Source: a virus (Duplodnaviria > Caudoviricetes). Taken from it: a stretch of 58,340 nucleotides of DNA. This document shows positions 43,964 to 50,541 of the stretch, piece by piece (the stretch's first letter is position 1; each line of letters begins with the position of its first letter). The stretch spans positions 1-58,340 of IMG/VR virus record IMGVR_UViG_3300035670_000243. One strand, given 5' to 3'. The translations under genes were made by a program, and so were the position numbers. The notes below the pieces were generated by a model that saw nothing but the letters and a program-made list of their open reading frames with translations, was not told the DNA's origin and did no database searches.

Positions 43964-44035
43964 GCATTCCGCTACCGAGACCACTACGCGGACAGACTGC
44001 ACACAGGTATTGACAACGCACGCGCAAGTAATAAC

Positions 44036-44157
44036 CGCGCACACGCACGCATACGCGCACGTACACGCGCGCGCCTGGCGTGCACGCACGCACGCGCACG
44101 CGATCTAATCGCGCAAATACCCTAGGGACCCCTATAAATCGCGCACGCGCACGCACG
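44036..44157. repeat. Alternating purine-pyrimidine tracts
   Basis: Uninterrupted RY alternation at 44036-44074, 44078-44102 and 44140-44157. Confidence 0.85.
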
Positions 44158-44305
44158 AAAAACGCGCACGGGGGAGCACCAAAACCAGGGGCGGGGTGAC
44201 GGGTCCCATCTACACAATTCACCCTCCCCACCCCACCCCAACTCTCACATGCACTACCCCCTTGCGCTATTTACACTAGGGTCCCATCTGGTATGCTCGG
44301 CGTAT

Positions 44306-44455
44306 ATGAAAAAGCCCGGACTGTACGAGAACATTCACGCGAAGCGCGAGCGCATTAAAGCTGGGTCCCCGGAGCGCATGAGAAAGCCGGGGTCCCTTGG
44401 AGCGCCGACTGCGAAGGCATTCCGTGACTCAGCTAAAACTGCCAAGCGCAAGTAG
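44306..44455 (+). CDS. Small basic phage protein (MKKPGLYENIHAKR..GAPTAKAF)
   Basis: Recognisable small basic phage protein; TTTACA-16-TATGCT just upstream suggests a near-leaderless mRNA. Confidence 0.65.
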   Translation: MKKPGLYENIHAKRERIKAGSPERMRKPGSLGAPTAKAFRDSAKTAKRK

Positions 44456-47400
44456 CCAGTCACCGGGGACCCCTCCCCCTCCCCCGGCTGCGATTGACTT
44501 TAACGATCCTTTGATTAGGGAGCTGAACAAGCTTCCGACGGAGGATTTGATAGCGTATGAGAACCGGTTGAGGTGGGTGAATCAGCGTCACAAGCACCAG
44601 AAGCCGCCGAAGGGTGAGTGGACGGTGTGGTTGTTACTGGCGGGACGCGGAGCGGGTAAAGCGCTTTGTGTGGATACGCCTGTTGCGACGGCAACGGGCT
44701 GGACGCGCATGGGTGATCTTCGAGATGGCGATGTGGTGTTTGACGAGCAAGGAGCTGCGTGCACTGTAGTGAAATCGCATGAGCCGTATATTCCTGCTGC
44801 GATGTATCGGTTGACGTTTTCGGATGGCTCAACGATTGATGCGGACGCAGAGCATTTGTGGACGACTTTGACGCATCGTGCGCGAAAGCAGATGACGCGG
44901 CATGGGATTTCCAGGGTTCCGGACGATTGGGCGACATACCGGCATGTGTTGACTGATTGCCACGGCAACGTCACTGGGGAGGTTGGGGCTGAGACGTTGA
45001 CGACTGAGCAGTTGATTGGGTCTTTTACGCACAGTAGCAGGGGTGATTTAAACCACTGCATTCCGACCGCACAGCCGTTAAATCTTCCTGAGAAGGATCT
45101 GCTGATTGACCCATATTTGTTGGGTGTGTGGCTAGGTGATGGCGCATCTAAGGACCAAGTGATTTGGTCACACATTGACGATTTGCCGTTTGCTGAGGCG
45201 CATATTCAGTCGCTGGGTTACGAAACGTCGAGAAAGCACGATCAGGGTAATACGTGGAGTTTGCGCATTCAGGGGCTTGCCGCGCAGCTTAAAGAACTAG
45301 GCGTTTTTAAAAACAAGCATGTTCCAAGCCAATATCTTCGTGCGTCGATTGAGCAGCGTTTAGCGTTGTTGCGCGGGTTAATGGACACCGATGGGTATCA
45401 GTCTTCAAAGGCTGCGGAGTTTTGCAATACCAATCGCGCATTGGCTGAAGCGGTGTATGAGTTAGCGGTGTCATTGGGTGAGAAGCCGACTTTTAAAGAA
45501 AGCCGCGCCATGTTGTACGGTCGTGATTGTGGTGAGAAATATCGCGTGACATGGCGGTGGAATCGGTTTAACCCGTTCTCGTTGCCGCGCAAAGTGAATC
45601 AATTAGCAGCCCCCGAAGCGCAAGCGTTCAAGCACGGGCATCGGATGATTGTGTCGATTGAGCGCATTCAGCCATCCACTGTGCGGTGCATTACGGTGGA
45701 TAGTGCTTCGCGGTTGTATTTGGCCGGGGAGGCCATGATTCCAACGCACAATACACGCGCAGCAGCGGAATGGGTGTGGTGGCAGGCGTACAAAACGCCG
45801 GAGACGCGCTGGTTGGTGTGTGCACCAACGGCAGCGGACATTCGCGATACGTGTTTTGAGGGTGATTCTGGGTTAATTCAGGTGATGCCGGAGCGTGTTG
45901 TATCGGAATACAACCGGTCGCTATCGGAAATTATTCTGAAGAACGGCTCGCTAATCAAAGGCATTTCAGCGGAGACTCCCGACCGGCTGCGCGGTGGTCA
46001 ATGGCATGGTGCTTGGTGTCACCCTGCTGGAACTCCGGTCTTGATGGCAGACGGTAGCGAGAAGCCCATCGAGAAGATCCAAGTAGGTGATGTAGTTCAA
46101 ACGCGATTTGGGCCGCACGCAGTCACGGCATCGGGCTTGAGCCAGAACCCCGCACCGCTGTACCGTATCAGTTATGGCACGACGAACTTGACATGTACCG
46201 CAGATCATCCGATACTGATTGCAGGCCGGGGATGGGTCCCGGCTGAAAGCGTCAGAGTAGGAGATGAGCTATGGATACCATTGAGTTTGGCGGGAAAATA
46301 TGGCGTAAGCGCAAAGACGGGTACTACCGAAACGGTAAGAAGCAGTACCTTCATCGACACGTTTACGAGCAAAGCCACGGAGCTATTCCGCCCGGCTACG
46401 TTGTGCATCACGCCGATCACGACCCGGCTAACAACGACATTACGAACTTGGTGCTTATGCGTCGTTCTGAGCATCACAGCTATCATTCAGCAGGCAGACC
46501 AACGTCTGATAAGCAGAAGCAAGCTGCTTCAGCAACTTTTGTGCGCATGTGGCAAGAGTTGGAGTTGGATTCAAAAGCTTGCGTGCAGTGCGGTACGCAG
46601 TTTGAAAGCAAATCCATGCACAAAACTCGTGAGTTCTGTTCTGCAAAGTGCATGGAGAAGTGGAGAGCAAATGCTTTCCAGCCTGAAGAGCGCAAGTGCG
46701 AAGAGTGTAAAAGCCCTTACGAAGCCGTTAAGCGAACTCAGAAGTATTGCTGCGAGTCTTGCAATCAGAAAGCCGCTACTCGCCGGTATCGGGCGGATCG
46801 ACCCATTACAGTTCAGTCCTGTAATACCTGCGGAAAACAGTACGAAACCAAGCGCGCAAACGCAAGGTTCTGCTCAAGGCCCTGCGCCGTTCGCTATCAC
46901 GGCAAAAATCAGCGCCGTCGAAAGGTTAAAGACGCGGGAGCCGGTTTATAACCTGACAGTTGATCAGGTAAACGAGTACGTTGCAGGCGGAGTCGTGGTG
47001 CATAATTGCGATGAGTTAGCAGCTTGGCAGTACGATCAGGAGGCGTGGGACATGATTATGTTCGCGCTTCGATTGGGGAAACGTCCGAGGATTGTAGCGA
47101 CGACGACTCCGAAGCCGAAGGCGTTGATTCGTGACTTGATTGCGCGTGATGGGGCGGATGTGCACGTTACGAGGGCGAGCACGTACGAGAACATTGCGAA
47201 TTTGGCTCCGACTTTTCAGCAGCAGTTGTTGAAATTTGAGGGCACGACGCTTGGAAGACAGGAAATCCACGCGGAGGTGTTAAATCCTGAGGAGCAGGGG
47301 ATTATCAAGCGCAATTGGGTGAAGCTCTGGCCGGCGAAGAAGCCGTTACCGGCGCTTGAGCACATTGTGATGAGCTTGGACACGGCATTTACGGAGCAGA

Positions 47401-48032
47401 CGAGGGACAAAAAGACGTCCGATTCGGACCCGAGTGCGTGTGTGGTGTTGGGATTGTTCTACGAGAACGAGAAACCGAACATTATTTTGCTGGATTGTTG
47501 GGAAGACCGGCTGGGGATGCCGGAGTTGATCAAGAAGGTGAAGCGGGAGATGGAGGTTTACTACGGGGAGGACGATCAGAAGCCGATTATCAAGCCGATG
47601 TACGGTCCTTCGCGGATGATTAACACGGGTCGGAAGCCCGATACGATAGTGATTGAGGACAAGGGCAGCGGGATTTCTCTCCGTCAGATGCTCTCTAGGG
47701 AGGGGATTCTGGCGCATGCGTATAACCCTGGGAAGGCATCTAAGTTGACCCGATTGCACATGGTGAGTCACTTATTTGCCAGTGGGATGGTGTGGTTTGT
47801 GGAGAGTGAGAAGCGTTCCGGGCAGGTTAGATCATGGGCGGAGCCGCTTTTGTACCAATTGTGTTCGTTTTCGGGGGAGGGGACGATCAAACACGATGAT
47901 TTGATGGATGCTTGCACGCAGGGATTACGTTTCCTAGCGGACAGGGATATGATAAGCGTGAGTAAACCTAAGCCGGTACAGCCGCGACTAATTGTGAACG
48001 AGCGTCCGAGGGGAAATCCATATGGCATCTGA
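44397..48032 (+). CDS. terL: Terminase large subunit containing two inteins (about 517 aa after splicing; true start may be the GTG at 44424)
   Basis: Walker A AGRGAGK/T and Walker B GAW/CDE restored after intein removal; TTTP, DTA, IEDK.SG and HDD..DA motifs. Confidence 0.93.
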   Translation: MERRLRRHSVTQLKLPSASSQSPGTPPPPPAAIDFNDPLIRELNKLPTEDLIAYENRLRWVNQRHKHQKPPKGEWTVWLLLAGRGAGKALCVDTPVATATGWTRMGDLRDGDVVFDEQGAACTVVKSHEPYIPAAMYRLTFSDGSTIDADAEHLWTTLTHRARKQMTRHGISRVPDDWATYRHVLTDCHGNVTGEVGAETLTTEQLIGSFTHSSRGDLNHCIPTAQPLNLPEKDLLIDPYLLGVWLGDGASKDQVIWSHIDDLPFAEAHIQSLGYETSRKHDQGNTWSLRIQGLAAQLKELGVFKNKHVPSQYLRASIEQRLALLRGLMDTDGYQSSKAAEFCNTNRALAEAVYELAVSLGEKPTFKESRAMLYGRDCGEKYRVTWRWNRFNPFSLPRKVNQLAAPEAQAFKHGHRMIVSIERIQPSTVRCITVDSASRLYLAGEAMIPTHNTRAAAEWVWWQAYKTPETRWLVCAPTAADIRDTCFEGDSGLIQVMPERVVSEYNRSLSEIILKNGSLIKGISAETPDRLRGGQWHGAWCHPAGTPVLMADGSEKPIEKIQVGDVVQTRFGPHAVTASGLSQNPAPLYRISYGTTNLTCTADHPILIAGRGWVPAESVRVGDELWIPLSLAGKYGVSAKTGTTETVRSSTFIDTFTSKATELFRPATLCITPITTRLTTTLRTWCLCVVLSITAIIQQADQRLISRSKLLQQLLCACGKSWSWIQKLACSAVRSLKANPCTKLVSSVLQSAWRSGEQMLSSLKSASAKSVKALTKPLSELRSIAASLAIRKPLLAGIGRIDPLQFSPVIPAENSTKPSAQTQGSAQGPAPFAITAKISAVERLKTREPVYNLTVDQVNEYVAGGVVVHNCDELAAWQYDQEAWDMIMFALRLGKRPRIVATTTPKPKALIRDLIARDGADVHVTRASTYENIANLAPTFQQQLLKFEGTTLGRQEIHAEVLNPEEQGIIKRNWVKLWPAKKPLPALEHIVMSLDTAFTEQTRDKKTSDSDPSACVVLGLFYENEKPNIILLDCWEDRLGMPELIKKVKREMEVYYGEDDQKPIIKPMYGPSRMINTGRKPDTIVIEDKGSGISLRQMLSREGILAHAYNPGKASKLTRLHMVSHLFASGMVWFVESEKRSGQVRSWAEPLLYQLCSFSGEGTIKHDDLMDACTQGLRFLADRDMISVSKPKPVQPRLIVNERPRGNPYGI
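44661..45752 (+). mobile_element. Intein 1 (364 aa, Ala-1, class-3 signature) with LAGLIDADG endonuclease, inserted in Walker A
   Basis: ALCVDTPV start, AEHLW block B, VRCITVD block F, IPTHN/T end; PYLLGVWLGDG and LLRGLMDTDG motifs. Confidence 0.9.
46017..47006 (+). mobile_element. Intein 2 (330 aa, Cys-1), inserted in Walker B
   Basis: CHPAGTPVLMADG start, TADH block B, VYNLTV block F, VVHN/C end. Confidence 0.9.
46271..46951 (+). CDS. HNH endonuclease with C-terminal Zn-finger repeats, nested out of frame inside intein 2
   Basis: YLHRHVYE..G.IP.GYVVHH.D.D..NN...NL..HH HNH core; three CxxC..CxxxC repeats; AGGAG 7 nt upstream of the ATG. Confidence 0.88.
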   Translation: MDTIEFGGKIWRKRKDGYYRNGKKQYLHRHVYEQSHGAIPPGYVVHHADHDPANNDITNLVLMRRSEHHSYHSAGRPTSDKQKQAASATFVRMWQELELDSKACVQCGTQFESKSMHKTREFCSAKCMEKWRANAFQPEERKCEECKSPYEAVKRTQKYCCESCNQKAATRRYRADRPITVQSCNTCGKQYETKRANARFCSRPCAVRYHGKNQRRRKVKDAGAGL

Positions 48033-50541
48033 GCCGAATGATTTGGATGAAGCGAAGGAAGACCTTGGTGAGATGTTTGAACTCCCTGATGAGGTGTCTG
48101 AGATTGAGGACACTGAGGACGGCGGGGCGATTGTTCGTTTTGAAGAGGAGTCCGAGGAGTCTGTTGAGTTGGAGTTTTACTCTAACTTAGCGGAGACGCT
48201 GCCTGAGGGGGAGATGGACGACTTGGCCCAGAGTTTGTTGGGTTTGGTGTCCAAGGACAAGGAAGCGCGTAAGAAGCGTGATGAGCAGTATGAAGAGGGA
48301 ATCCGGCGTACGGGACTTGGAGATGATGCACCAGGCGGCGCTCAATTTCAGGGTGCAAGTCGGGTTGTGCACCCCATGCTTACTGAGGTTTGCGTGGACT
48401 TCTCTGCCCGAGCTATTAAGGAGCTTTTCCCGGCTGCGGGTCCGGTAAAGGACTACATTGTTGGGGAGCCGACTGCGGACAAGGTGACGAAGGCATCGCG
48501 CAAGAGCCAGTACATGAACTGGCAGTTGACGCAGCAGATGCCGGAGTTCCGTGCGGAGTTGGAGCAATTACTGACTCAGGTCCCGCTGGGTGGTGCGCAG
48601 TATTTGAAGTTGAGTTGGGACTCTGGCAAGCGCCGTCCGGTTCCGCTGTTCATTGGTATTGACGACATTTACCTGCCGTACGCGGCAACGAACTTTTATT
48701 CGGCCGAGCGCAAGACGCACGTTCAGTACGTGACGGAGATTGAGTACCGGCAGCGGATTCGCTCTGGGATGTATCGGGATGTTGACTTGGCTCCGACGAC
48801 GATGGAGCCGGATGTCTCGAAGGCTGAGAAGGCAAACAACAAGATCGAGGGTCGCGACAGCAGCGCGTACGACGTTGACGGGCTGCGCACGATCTTTGAA
48901 ATCTATGTCATTTCTGACATAGAAGACGAGTACGGGCTGGCTCCGTACATTGTTTCTCTGGACAAGACGACGGGTAAGGTTCTCAGCATCTATCGCAACT
49001 GGCGTGAGGAAGACGACACGCTTGAGGAGATGCAGTGGATCATTGAGTTCCCGTTTGTTCCGTGGCGTGGTGCGTACCCGATTGGCATTCCGCAGATGAT
49101 TGGCGGATTGTCTGCTGCGGCTACGGGTGCTCTTCGGGCGCTGTTGGATTCTGCGCACATTGCGAACTTTCCTGGAATGCTGAAGCTGAAGGGCGGTCGT
49201 GAGGGCGGGCAGTCTGAGCGCATTGATCCGACCGAGGTTAAGGAGATTGAGGGCGGCGCGTTTTCGGATGACATCCGAAAGATTGCGATGCCGTTGCCGT
49301 TCAACCAGCCTTCTGAGACGTTGTTCCGATTGCTGGGCTTTTTGATTGAGTCTGGCAAGGGCGTGGTTCGCACCACGATGGAGAACATCACCGACAGCAA
49401 CGCCAACGTCCCGGTTGGTACGCAGCTCTCGCGTATTGAGCAGGGGATGATGGTATTCAGTGCGATTCATGCGCGATTGCATGATGCGATGGGTCGCACG
49501 CTGAAGGTTCTGCATCGTTTGAACGCGATGTACTTGGAGGACGAAGAGGTCAAGGAAGAGCTTGGCGAGTTGATTGTTCGCCGTTCTGACTTTGAAGGTC
49601 CGATGGATGTGGTTCCGGTTTCGGACCCGAACATTTTCAGCGAAGCCCAGCGTTACGCTCAGGTTCAGGCTCTTGCTCAGCGTGCGATTGCTTTGCCGCA
49701 GATTTACGATTTGCGCAAAGTTGAAGAGCGCATCCTTGATCAGTTGAAGATTCCGAATGCCAAGGATTTGTTGGTTCCTGCTCCGAAGCCGAAGGAGATG
49801 AATGCCGTTAATGAAAACATTGCTGCAACTCTTGGGCGTCCACTATCGGCGTTCCCGGAACAGGATCACCTTGCGCACATCCAGGTCCACTTGGACTATC
49901 TCACTAGCCCCGTACTGGGTGGCGGTTTCCTCATGTCGGGGACATACATTCCTGTCATTCTTAACCATCTCAAAGAGCATATCGCTCTTTGGTATGCGAA
50001 TCATGTCTTTGAAGTTGCCTCTAGCGCGATGGGTCGGGACATTTCGGAAGTCCAGCGCGAAAAGGGCAGTTCGGAATTGAAGCGCAGCTTTGACCAGATG
50101 CTGGCTGCGGCATCTCAGCGCGTAGTTCCGGATGCGGCAAAGGCGTTCAGCGCGATCCCGCAGATCGTTCAGCAAGCGATGCAGGTCATGCAGCAGATGC
50201 AGGGCATGGGACCGCAAGATCCGAAGACGGCGGCGCAGATGGCAGAGACGCAGCGCAAGGCTGCTGCGGATCAAGGGTTGCTTCAGGTCAAGCAGGCCGA
50301 GTTGCAGCTTGAGGCGCAGAAGGTGCAGTCTGGTTCGCAAGAGCAGACAGCGAAGATGCAGCAGGCAGCGCAGCGTGAAGTGCTCAAGCAGGATCGCTTG
50401 GACGAGCGTCAGGCTGCTGAGCTTCAGGTCAAGATGCTTACGAACCGCGAGGACAACCAGACGGCGAAGGACATCGCTGCTGCGGAAGTTCTCACGGGTG
50501 AAAAGGTTGGTGTTTCAACGGGCACGGGTATTAACCCGTAG
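48022..50541 (+). CDS. Portal protein
   Basis: Follows terL; F.GAS.VVHP.L.E, YMNWQLT and PVSDPNIFS motifs; Q-rich coiled-coil C-terminus. Confidence 0.88.
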   Translation: MASEPNDLDEAKEDLGEMFELPDEVSEIEDTEDGGAIVRFEEESEESVELEFYSNLAETLPEGEMDDLAQSLLGLVSKDKEARKKRDEQYEEGIRRTGLGDDAPGGAQFQGASRVVHPMLTEVCVDFSARAIKELFPAAGPVKDYIVGEPTADKVTKASRKSQYMNWQLTQQMPEFRAELEQLLTQVPLGGAQYLKLSWDSGKRRPVPLFIGIDDIYLPYAATNFYSAERKTHVQYVTEIEYRQRIRSGMYRDVDLAPTTMEPDVSKAEKANNKIEGRDSSAYDVDGLRTIFEIYVISDIEDEYGLAPYIVSLDKTTGKVLSIYRNWREEDDTLEEMQWIIEFPFVPWRGAYPIGIPQMIGGLSAAATGALRALLDSAHIANFPGMLKLKGGREGGQSERIDPTEVKEIEGGAFSDDIRKIAMPLPFNQPSETLFRLLGFLIESGKGVVRTTMENITDSNANVPVGTQLSRIEQGMMVFSAIHARLHDAMGRTLKVLHRLNAMYLEDEEVKEELGELIVRRSDFEGPMDVVPVSDPNIFSEAQRYAQVQALAQRAIALPQIYDLRKVEERILDQLKIPNAKDLLVPAPKPKEMNAVNENIAATLGRPLSAFPEQDHLAHIQVHLDYLTSPVLGGGFLMSGTYIPVILNHLKEHIALWYANHVFEVASSAMGRDISEVQREKGSSELKRSFDQMLAAASQRVVPDAAKAFSAIPQIVQQAMQVMQQMQGMGPQDPKTAAQMAETQRKAAADQGLLQVKQAELQLEAQKVQSGSQEQTAKMQQAAQREVLKQDRLDERQAAELQVKMLTNREDNQTAKDIAAAEVLTGEKVGVSTGTGINP

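Follow-up and report, generated by a model that had tools for sequence, protein, structure and literature searches.

The subject of this analysis is a large terminase subunit gene (terL) with an intein in whose coding sequence a second gene is written in another reading frame. It lies in IMG/VR virus record IMGVR_UViG_3300035670_000243 (Duplodnaviria; Caudoviricetes), a whole single-contig genome of 58,340 bp that was analysed at full length and is called the window below. The terL precursor is read as a single open reading frame (ORF) through two inteins, and it matches the Pfam families Terminase_6N (E 4e-14) and Terminase_6C (E 2.6e-6) in addition to two Hint/intein regions. Our main concern is the second intein, intein 2, which is inserted in the Walker B motif and contains, in the +2 frame relative to terL, an ORF for a predicted HNH endonuclease. 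The features of this part of the locus are the following.

44397..48032, plus strand: terL precursor ORF, 1211 codons, one frame through both inteins (coordinates are the ORF bounds)
46017..47006, plus strand: intein 2, 330 codons, in Walker B, between GAW and CDELAAW
46017..46270, plus strand: N-terminal splicing region of intein 2 (blocks A and B; Cys1, T61-A-D-H64), 106 bits with a hidden Markov model (HMM)
46259-46263, plus strand: candidate Shine-Dalgarno (SD) sequence AGGAG for the HNH ORF, 7 nt 5' of its ATG, within the intein Gly-Asp codons
46271..46951, plus strand: HNH endonuclease ORF, 226 amino acids plus stop, ATG at 46271, TAA at 46949-46951, +2 frame relative to terL
46272..46940, plus strand: shadow-frame linker, the 223 terL-frame codons that overlap the HNH ORF
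46283..46495, plus strand: predicted HNH catalytic domain (beta-beta-alpha-metal), HNH residues 5-75, a structural match to I-HmuI
46580..46885, plus strand: three CxxC...CxxxC zinc-ribbon units (C104-C127, C143-C164, C184-C205)
46941..47006, plus strand: C-terminal splicing region of intein 2 (blocks F and G; VYNLTV ... VVVHN)
47007..47009, plus strand: +1 Cys codon of the C-extein (CDELAAW, Walker B)

The splicing blocks of intein 2 are intact, with Cys1, TADH at residues 61-64, VYNLTV at residue 310, the terminal VVVHN and the +1 Cys. When intein 2 was searched alone, the Intein_splicing profile scored 36.4 bits, narrowly above its cut-off of 35.8. In 11 aligned inteins C1, T61, H64 and N330 are invariant and H329 is nearly so, and an AlphaFold 2 (AF2) model of the intein frame based on that number of sequences has a pLDDT (the predicted score of the local distance difference test) of 86-94 over residues 1-90 and 79-92 over residues 291-330, as averages over blocks of ten. 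Relatives with an empty allele read WHGAW/CDELAAW at this position (the slash marks the insertion point), so the insertion is precise and in frame. With Cys1 and TxxH, HN before Cys, and a profile score above cut-off, intein 2 thus has the marks of a class 1 type intein, and it is best regarded as a class-1-type mini-intein that would be expected to splice. It is not a fractured gene with a split intein, since the terL frame runs across it without a stop. The same observations bear on the idea that the insert leaves at the RNA level instead of by protein splicing, as a group I or group II intron with an HNH ORF. Such ORFs are frequent in phage group I introns, and I-HmuI, the HNH nicking enzyme of a Bacillus phage, is itself encoded by an intron. 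However, an Rfam search of 44000..48500 returned no intron family at E ≤ 1, its only matches being three chance microRNA rows 5' of the intein, and the insert is flanked by in-frame intein blocks with the frame open between them. We give this explanation almost no credence.

The HNH ORF occupies the slot between intein blocks B and F and leaves the intein frame uninterrupted. Its ATG straddles the Leu-Trp codons CTA-TGG of intein 2, and its TAA sits in the block F Tyr-Asn codons TAT-AAC. The encoded protein matches Pfam HNH_3 with an E value of 2.1e-16 (59.7 bits, cut-off 24.8). Among 38 HNH sequences, H46, H47, D49, N54, N55, N59, H68 and H72 are invariant, and the cysteines of the zinc ribbons are invariant or nearly so. 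A fold was predicted for the HNH frame from a 38-sequence alignment with a mean pLDDT of 91.0. Residues 5-75 of the model superimpose on I-HmuI (1u3e) with a Z score of 8.2 and a root-mean-square deviation of 2.7 Å over 71 residues with 28% identity; the next match is I-PpoI (Z 4.6), and the C-terminal units resemble zinc fingers of the YacG/FCS type (Z 3-4.3). The three zinc-ribbon units presumably form the DNA-binding part of the protein. By profile, by key residues and by predicted fold the protein belongs to the HNH_3/His-Me finger nucleases, and it probably has nuclease activity. A sequence-only reading of the window, produced by a model from the letters and a list of ORFs, had described this anatomy: the normal splicing blocks, a stop-free in-frame middle without an endonuclease motif, the 226-residue HNH protein at +2 with its three zinc-finger repeats, and an SD sequence, start and stop embedded in intein codons. 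All of these elements and their coordinates were recovered here.

The peptide that the terL frame encodes under the HNH gene has no recognizable identity. The 223 residues of the in-frame middle gave no Pfam matches even at E ≤ 10, and in the predicted model, which draws on the 11-sequence alignment, pLDDT is below 50 over intein residues 101-146 and 195-289. Some of its columns seem conserved, for example T139 and T140; these are the HHxDxxxNN motif of the HNH protein read one base off. Selection on the two frames was assessed by comparing the window with a relative on a 4,069-bp contig (L006), which aligns with it over 2139 nt without a gap at 79% identity (Nei-Gojobori method; a single pair). 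Over the overlap, the HNH frame has an omega of 0.19, the intein frame one of 0.83 and the third frame one of 1.75. The corresponding values are 0.14 and 0.16 for the N and C blocks of the intein, and 0.06 and 0.12 for the two exteins. Differences in the overlap number 47, 28 and 74 at HNH codon positions 1, 2 and 3, respectively. The contrast in omega and the excess at third positions indicate, in this one pairwise comparison, that the HNH protein is conserved and that the shadow peptide drifts in all respects but the avoidance of stops. Judging from this alignment, stop-avoidance is the only selection that acts on the terL frame over the overlap. A real domain in the shadow peptide was therefore ruled out on the strength of the blank Pfam search, the lack of a confident fold and the omega of 0.83. 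The sequence-only reading had both frames apparently under selection. This stands for the HNH frame, and for the shadow frame it stands as regards stop codons and fails as regards the peptide.

The same layout recurs in other phages. A tblastn search of GenBank phages with the HNH protein returned 89 records, several of the matches lying under genes annotated as large terminase, and five records were examined. Four of these, from Tetrasphaera phage TJE1, Clostridioides (C.) difficile phage phiCDHM19, Acinetobacter phage Highwayman and Rhodobacteraceae phage LS06-2018-MD07, have an annotated terL without interruption, within which the HNH is found in the +2 frame and the in-frame middle is just as meaningless. 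The fifth, Vibrio phage 1.238.A, also has the HNH at +2, but there the terL frame is closed by a stop, after which the same frame encodes a separate "hint domain protein". The records L001, L003, L004 and L005 (GenBank phages) have the region annotated as large terminase only, with no separate feature for the embedded HNH ORF.

A wider survey was made of viral contigs. An alignment of these six HNH proteins, the window's and those of the five phages (A1), was used for the scan; at least 514 relatives were confirmed, of which the best 80 were retained. Five contiguous examples supplied profile HMMs for the N and C blocks of the intein, which were run against all three forward frames. By these HMMs, 58 loci among the best 80 of at least 514 have both intein blocks in one frame that is stop-free from block to block, and the HNH at +2; three more (L051, L059 and L080) show this layout by eye, which brings the total to 61/80. 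The remaining 19 comprise two loci with the HNH at +1, eight fractured loci, seven without an intein block and two cut by the contig end. Near-duplicates exist in this set, and when HNH proteins are clustered the contiguous +2 layout is found in 55/72 clusters at 90% identity and in 38/48 at 50%. The sequence-only reading had suggested testing whether the HNH stays out of frame in related inteins whose own frame is open, and the contigs and the isolate genomes display this arrangement.

This recurrence also bears on the concern that an ordinary in-frame HNH intein has been disguised by two compensating indels, that is, by a sequencing or assembly artefact. The same offset is present in 61 independent contigs and 4 isolate genomes, the alignment with L006 runs ungapped over its 2139 nt, and the HNH ORF has its own stop, SD sequence and ATG. 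In the sole relative whose HNH shares the frame of the intein N half (L018), a stop codon separates the two, so that this is no in-frame fusion. We regard the chance of such an artefact as practically negligible.

Other arrangements of the same HNH family were seen among the relatives. Fractured terL genes occur in Vibrio phage 1.238.A (L002, 2343..3461) and in L018, L031, L033, L034, L056, L058, L066 and L079; in the fractured loci a stop near the start of the HNH gene terminates the intein N half, and the C half is found downstream. In L047 (1260..1865), one of the seven loci without an intein block, a free-standing relative of the HNH gene directly follows a terL with an uninterrupted nuclease motif (DNNVIDALRYALE), and its +1 frame is stop-free across the entire HNH. 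A further locus, L008 (3361..4263), encodes a 1079-residue TerL in which the N-block and C-block HMMs of the intein match a second time, 3' of the Walker-B intein.

How probable is it that a frame overlapping a nuclease gene remains open? Across intein 2 the terL frame has no stops, and the other two frames of the same strand have 23 and 7. The sequence-only reading put the chance of an open shadow frame at (61/64)^227, or 2e-5. This figure proves to come from the wrong null and to be too small by some three orders of magnitude. Relative to the HNH frame, the terL frame is displaced by one base, and a stop can arise in it only at HNH codon junctions of the form NTA/R or NTG/A. When the HNH protein was kept constant, 1.2% of permutations of the gene's own synonymous codons left the terL frame open, as did 4% of recodings by the codon usage of the window and 0.2% of those with uniform choice among synonymous codons. 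The odds in a single window are thus mild, and it is the conservation among relatives that provides strong evidence for the open frame. Synonymous permutation at each locus gave a mean of 1.7 stops per HNH gene in the host frame, with a median chance of 0.116 that the frame stays open; in the other frame the mean was 15.1 stops and the chance of an open frame was essentially zero. The +2 relation is thus the one that stop-codon arithmetic permits, a single frame being reachable. A control set was formed by the 16 relatives outside an open intein frame, apart from the two contig-cut loci and L074/L075. In this set 15/16 have 2-12 host-frame stops, the exception being the free-standing L047 with none. 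Overprinted HNH genes are additionally depleted of the codon junctions that make stops. Two near-identical loci, L074 (3520..4611) and L075, have a contiguous terL intein with the HNH at +1 and no host-frame stops where 5.7 are expected, and they are an exception to the +2 frame rule.

The HNH protein is probably translated from its own start. In the Walker-B group, GGAGA or GGGGA followed by ATG recur in the Gly-Asp and Leu-Trp codons of the intein. Over the loci as a whole, 25/58 HNH starts are preceded, 4-12 nt away, by an SD core of 4 nt or more, compared to 567/6473 (8.8%) of the ATG, GTG and TTG triplets in the same regions, an enrichment of about fivefold. The start nearest to the homology is an ATG in 45/58 loci. 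In the window a TGA (46265-46267) shuts the HNH frame one codon 5' of the ATG, and an HNH-frame stop lies within 30 nt 5' of the start in 29/61 loci. The HNH frame is also the -1 frame of terL, which raises the possibility that ribosomes shift by -1 out of terL and produce the HNH fused to the precursor's N-terminal part; in 15/61 loci the HNH frame is open for more than 90 nt 5' of the chosen start, as such a route would need. However, entry from terL is made unlikely by the TGA in the window and by the nearby upstream stops in 29/61 loci, and the prevalence of ATG and the enrichment of SD cores at the HNH starts also speak against it. Frameshifting is in our view very improbable, and independent initiation at ATG 46271 is the route to which these sequence features point. 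A promoter-like site, which we offer as a lead only, is placed as follows.

46188..46216, plus strand: promoter-like TTGACA-17-GATACT, in block B codons, 55 nt 5' of the HNH ATG

This site is identical in the relative L137, its -35 hexamer is kept in L006, and it is absent from three mini-inteins.

The distribution of the element was examined through the C-extein of terL, in the 80 closest relatives on viral contigs (88-99% amino acid identity). The Walker-B site is empty in 72/80 of these alleles and occupied in 8/80; five of the occupied alleles have a 330-residue intein with the HNH, and three have a mini-intein of 126-127 residues without it. Such sporadic presence among close terL alleles is the pattern of a homing endonuclease gene. 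The empty alleles read W/CDEL in 33 cases and W/TDEL in 39. Across L086-L164 the Walker-B +1 codon is polymorphic (Cys or Thr), and 17 of the Thr alleles also have GCW instead of GAW; Thr alleles might be poor hosts for the element, or resistant to it.

The nearest C-extein relatives of the window, at about 95% nucleotide identity, are empty, and intein-bearing alleles are only 77-83% identical to it in the extein. Compared with the nearest empty alleles, the C-extein has 47 mismatches, of which 35 lie within the first 285 nt beside the site and 12 in the 741 nt beyond (Fisher p 1e-11), and the 264 nt on the other side of the site are also just 88% identical. This mismatch gradient fits what co-conversion during homing would leave, and other recombination could produce it too. 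In a FastTree phylogeny of 86 HNH sequences, the 13 from the Walker-B site require 2 label changes compared to 12.3 after shuffling, and none of 500 shuffles reached 2. Insertion-site labels were assigned by regular expression, with many CxDAxRY sites grouped as "other", and the Walker-B label result alone is used here. The clustering of the Walker-B sequences on the tree indicates that the nuclease tracks its insertion site.

One pair of alleles is mosaic. L137 has a full intein and L147 a mini-intein, with 94-98% identity between the exteins of the two. Over their first 125 nt and last 61 nt the inteins match at every position (100% identity); in the interior, identity is only 40% across 178 aligned nt, with 623 nt more in the full intein. 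Identity resumes exactly at the HNH stop codon. From this pattern the exchanged unit seems to be the intein interior together with the HNH gene, and not the whole intein.

These data also bear on a different role for the HNH protein, in which it would have been domesticated as a packaging helper of the terminase and would not be a homing enzyme. HNH proteins assist cos cleavage in HK97-like phages. The HNH described here is strictly associated with terL across many phages, its free-standing relative in L047 directly follows an uninterrupted terL, and HNH genes adjoining terminase genes are noted in the accessible text of PMC3592412. Against such a role, the HNH exactly fills the endonuclease slot of the intein, its best structural match is a homing nickase, and HNH sequences group by insertion site. 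Moreover, the whole element is missing in 72/80 of the closest terL relatives, and it therefore cannot be required for packaging in this lineage. We consider domestication for packaging unlikely.

Taken together, the findings lead us to propose that a homing endonuclease gene of the free-standing type has been overprinted on a mini-intein and has its own translation, a reading to which we assign a probability of about 0.85. It builds on what was observed here, namely the anatomy and its conservation, selection that differs between frames, the predicted folds, a sporadic distribution and mosaic alleles, and from these we infer independent initiation, splicing, nuclease activity and the target. 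Ribosomes reading terL would make the precursor, in which some 223 meaningless, stop-free codons would serve as a loose linker joining the two HINT halves. Intein 2 would then splice out and restore the Walker B motif (GAW-CDE). Other ribosomes would initiate at AGGAG/ATG 46271 and produce a 226-residue protein consisting of an I-HmuI-like HNH domain followed by three zinc ribbons. In a mixed infection this enzyme may nick or cut related terL alleles, and repair would copy the cassette into them. Selection would maintain the HNH protein, and in the terL frame it would oppose stop codons only. The sequence-only reading had proposed that a separate nuclease gene fills the endonuclease slot and that the shadow peptide is excised with the intein. 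The comparative tests all favour this proposal, with translation and splicing as its conditional parts.

Several points weigh against the proposal. Taken from the window alone, the open shadow frame is mildly improbable (0.2-4%) and suggestive at most; survivorship also plays a part, as a phage with a broken terL would go unseen. The Foldseek match of the HNH model to I-HmuI in the Protein Data Bank (PDB) is weak (E 0.019), the usable Z score being that from VIA re-alignment, and a sequence search of the HNH protein against the PDB gave no match. Most of the 89 GenBank matches cover the HNH core only, and many are annotated free-standing HNH genes. The classification of inteins relies on home-made HMMs with 5 seed sequences, and as A1 was built from intein-embedded HNHs, the figure of 61/80 describes the nearest zinc-ribbon subfamily and not HNH_3 overall. 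The HNH phylogeny is a FastTree with many weak branches. Metagenomic contigs may be chimeric, which matters most for the mosaic alleles, of which there are few pairs. As regards expression, the promoter-like site has 10/12 matches, with 2 such sites against 0.8 expected, which is not significant, and RNA structure prediction at the ribosome-binding site of the HNH found no hairpin that stands out (z -0.72). Finally, with starts chosen heuristically, an SD core is absent before 33/58 HNH starts.

The missing SD cores, together with the HNH-less mini-inteins at the same site, would be in keeping with a view of the HNH ORF as a decaying relic, unexpressed or inactive, within a vertically inherited mini-intein whose linker is long junk. 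A relic would not be expected to show an omega of 0.19 with differences mostly at third positions, catalytic and zinc-binding residues that are invariant in 38 sequences, or a predicted fold with a pLDDT of 91. The ORF is moreover intact in 61/80 relatives (the best 80 of at least 514), and vertical inheritance sits poorly with the finding that the closest terL relatives are empty and that mismatches are clustered at the site. Decay is thus a quite unlikely explanation, and the overprinted and probably active homing endonuclease gene remains the reading we prefer.

Within that preferred reading, the relationship between the nuclease gene and the intein is of interest. From the mosaic pair L137 and L147 it is tempting to speculate that the HNH cassette is a parasite of the intein rather than its partner, homing into mini-intein alleles that serve as a landing pad without phenotype. 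The mobile unit would in this case extend from about intein nucleotide 126 to the HNH stop, and would be self-contained, with the promoter-like site, the SD sequence and the ORF. We put this forward tentatively, as a possibility that we would not yet favour. The HNH family, with its free-standing, terL-fracturing and overprinted members, may thus preserve the successive stages in which inteins acquire endonucleases.

The question of how inteins gained their homing endonucleases is an old one, often framed as "splicing first, nuclease later". The states of the HNH family include the empty site, the mini-intein, the overprinted mini-intein, the fractured terL and the free-standing gene, and the first three coexist at one site in one population. 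With these states side by side, the invasion model becomes directly testable. The stop arithmetic, with about 1.7 stops expected in one frame and about 15 in the other, provides a simple rule for the frame that is open to an overprinted nuclease. There is also a consequence for annotation, since four GenBank phages label the region "terminase large subunit" only and a whole gene has thereby been missed.

The remainder of the terL region adds some context. Intein 1 lies in the Walker A motif and is of the familiar kind, with its endonuclease in frame.

44661..45752, plus strand: intein 1, in the Walker A motif, with an in-frame LAGLIDADG endonuclease (LAGLIDADG_3 at residues 319-369); context only

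It is absent, with GRGAGK/TRAAAEW intact, from 71/72 relatives with an empty Walker-B site. Compared with these empty alleles, the insert starts with Ala-Leu-Cys rather than Cys; either Ala is the first residue of the intein, or two additional residues are left in the P-loop. Just 5' of terL, the segment 43900..44230 is strand-skewed and of low complexity (GC content 0.59-0.63, AT skew 0.51), and its ORF translations on both strands are rich in His/Ala/Arg/Val repeats. This segment might be a packaging site or a repeat. A search of the terL DNA against GenBank phages returned a single weak match (65.6% identity over 10% of the query), and thus no close relative among them.

Turning to known systems, the HNH protein resembles I-HmuI (1u3e) in its layout, with the nuclease at the N terminus and a DNA-binding extension at the C terminus. 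The two differ in that I-HmuI is encoded by an intron and binds DNA through a part other than a string of zinc ribbons. The fractured genes of Dassa et al. (2009, PMC2677866) are a second point of reference. The accessible text of that paper describes free-standing homing endonuclease genes between the halves of split inteins, a terminase case included, and predicts that HNH genes could do likewise. As in those genes, a free-standing endonuclease gene stands at the endonuclease position, and its 3' end overlaps the C-terminal part of the intein. In the fractured genes described there, the host frame is broken in two and the endonucleases are of the GIY-YIG or Vsr-like type, whereas the host frame of the window is continuous and the nuclease is an HNH.

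The sequence-only reading had left open whether the architecture as such was new. It is not: inteins of this kind are already in print, from Gorbalenya (1998) to the Gogarten-laboratory reports of 2025-26, and a claim of novelty therefore falls. In its accessible text, the preprint of Gosselin, Arsenault and Gogarten (bioRxiv 10.1101/2025.01.02.630785) describes actinobacteriophage inteins with an endonuclease VII-like homing endonuclease (HEN) "in frame 3", the terminase large subunit being among the hosts; its proposal is that inteins are invaded by free-standing HENs, and it credits Gorbalenya (1998) with earlier non-canonical inteins. The window matches this description in its intact splicing ends, its structureless in-frame middle and its His-Me-finger nuclease ORF in the third frame of the endonuclease slot. 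It shows both marks of a non-canonical intein with an out-of-frame HEN, namely the placement of the ORF and, in one pairwise comparison, purifying selection that acts on the HEN frame and spares the host frame over the overlap. The differences are in the nuclease, which is HNH_3/I-HmuI-like with three zinc ribbons and not endonuclease VII-like, and in the hosts. The actinophages of that set, as far as the accessible text names them, are not among the 89 phage records from the HNH tblastn search, where organisms sorted by the first word of the name include Klebsiella, Escherichia, Vibrio, Clostridium and others. The hosts of the window's HNH family, unlike those described in the preprint, are thus not confined to Actinobacteria. 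The preprint calls the architecture rare, and among the nearest relatives of the window's HNH it is the majority state.

A cyanobacterial dnaX intein with an out-of-frame LAGLIDADG homing endonuclease, "a rarity", is described in the accessible part of Phillips, DeSimone and Gogarten (bioRxiv 10.64898/2026.09.14.751524), which follows the "Non-canonical inteins" of Gorbalenya (1998) and proposes secondary invasion of a mini-intein. The likeness to the window extends to the +2 ORF, to dN/dS values that are low in the endonuclease frame and raised in the host frame, and to the coexistence of empty, mini and full alleles. The dnaX case differs in concerning a cellular gene and a LAGLIDADG enzyme, while the window has a phage terL and an HNH with a clear SD sequence and ATG in intein codons.

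For out-of-frame HNH_3 genes in terL inteins we found no published description, although subscription journals or the supplementary tables of preprints might hold one, and we likewise found none in print for inteins in TJE1, phiCD119, phiCDHM19 or 1.238.A, which subscription journals might contain. What the present analysis adds is the scale of the arrangement within one HNH subfamily, an explanation of the frame from stop codons, and a population with empty, mini and overprinted alleles at one site.

The closest parallel outside inteins is the ShiLan domain, which, in the accessible text of Arsenault et al. (2025, PMC11855218), is an HNH that lies out of frame, flanked by zinc fingers, within a phage DNA methylase. 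In both cases the HNH is hidden in the third frame of a stop-free host gene. In both, too, the HNH stop lies at a boundary: the ShiLan stop is at the very end of the insert (TAAC), and the window also has TAA-C, at the point where the identity between mini and full inteins resumes. ShiLan has, by that account, no splicing domain, so that the insert stays in the host protein, and no ribosome-binding site was found for it, whereas in the window an SD sequence is present and the intein would remove the shadow peptide.

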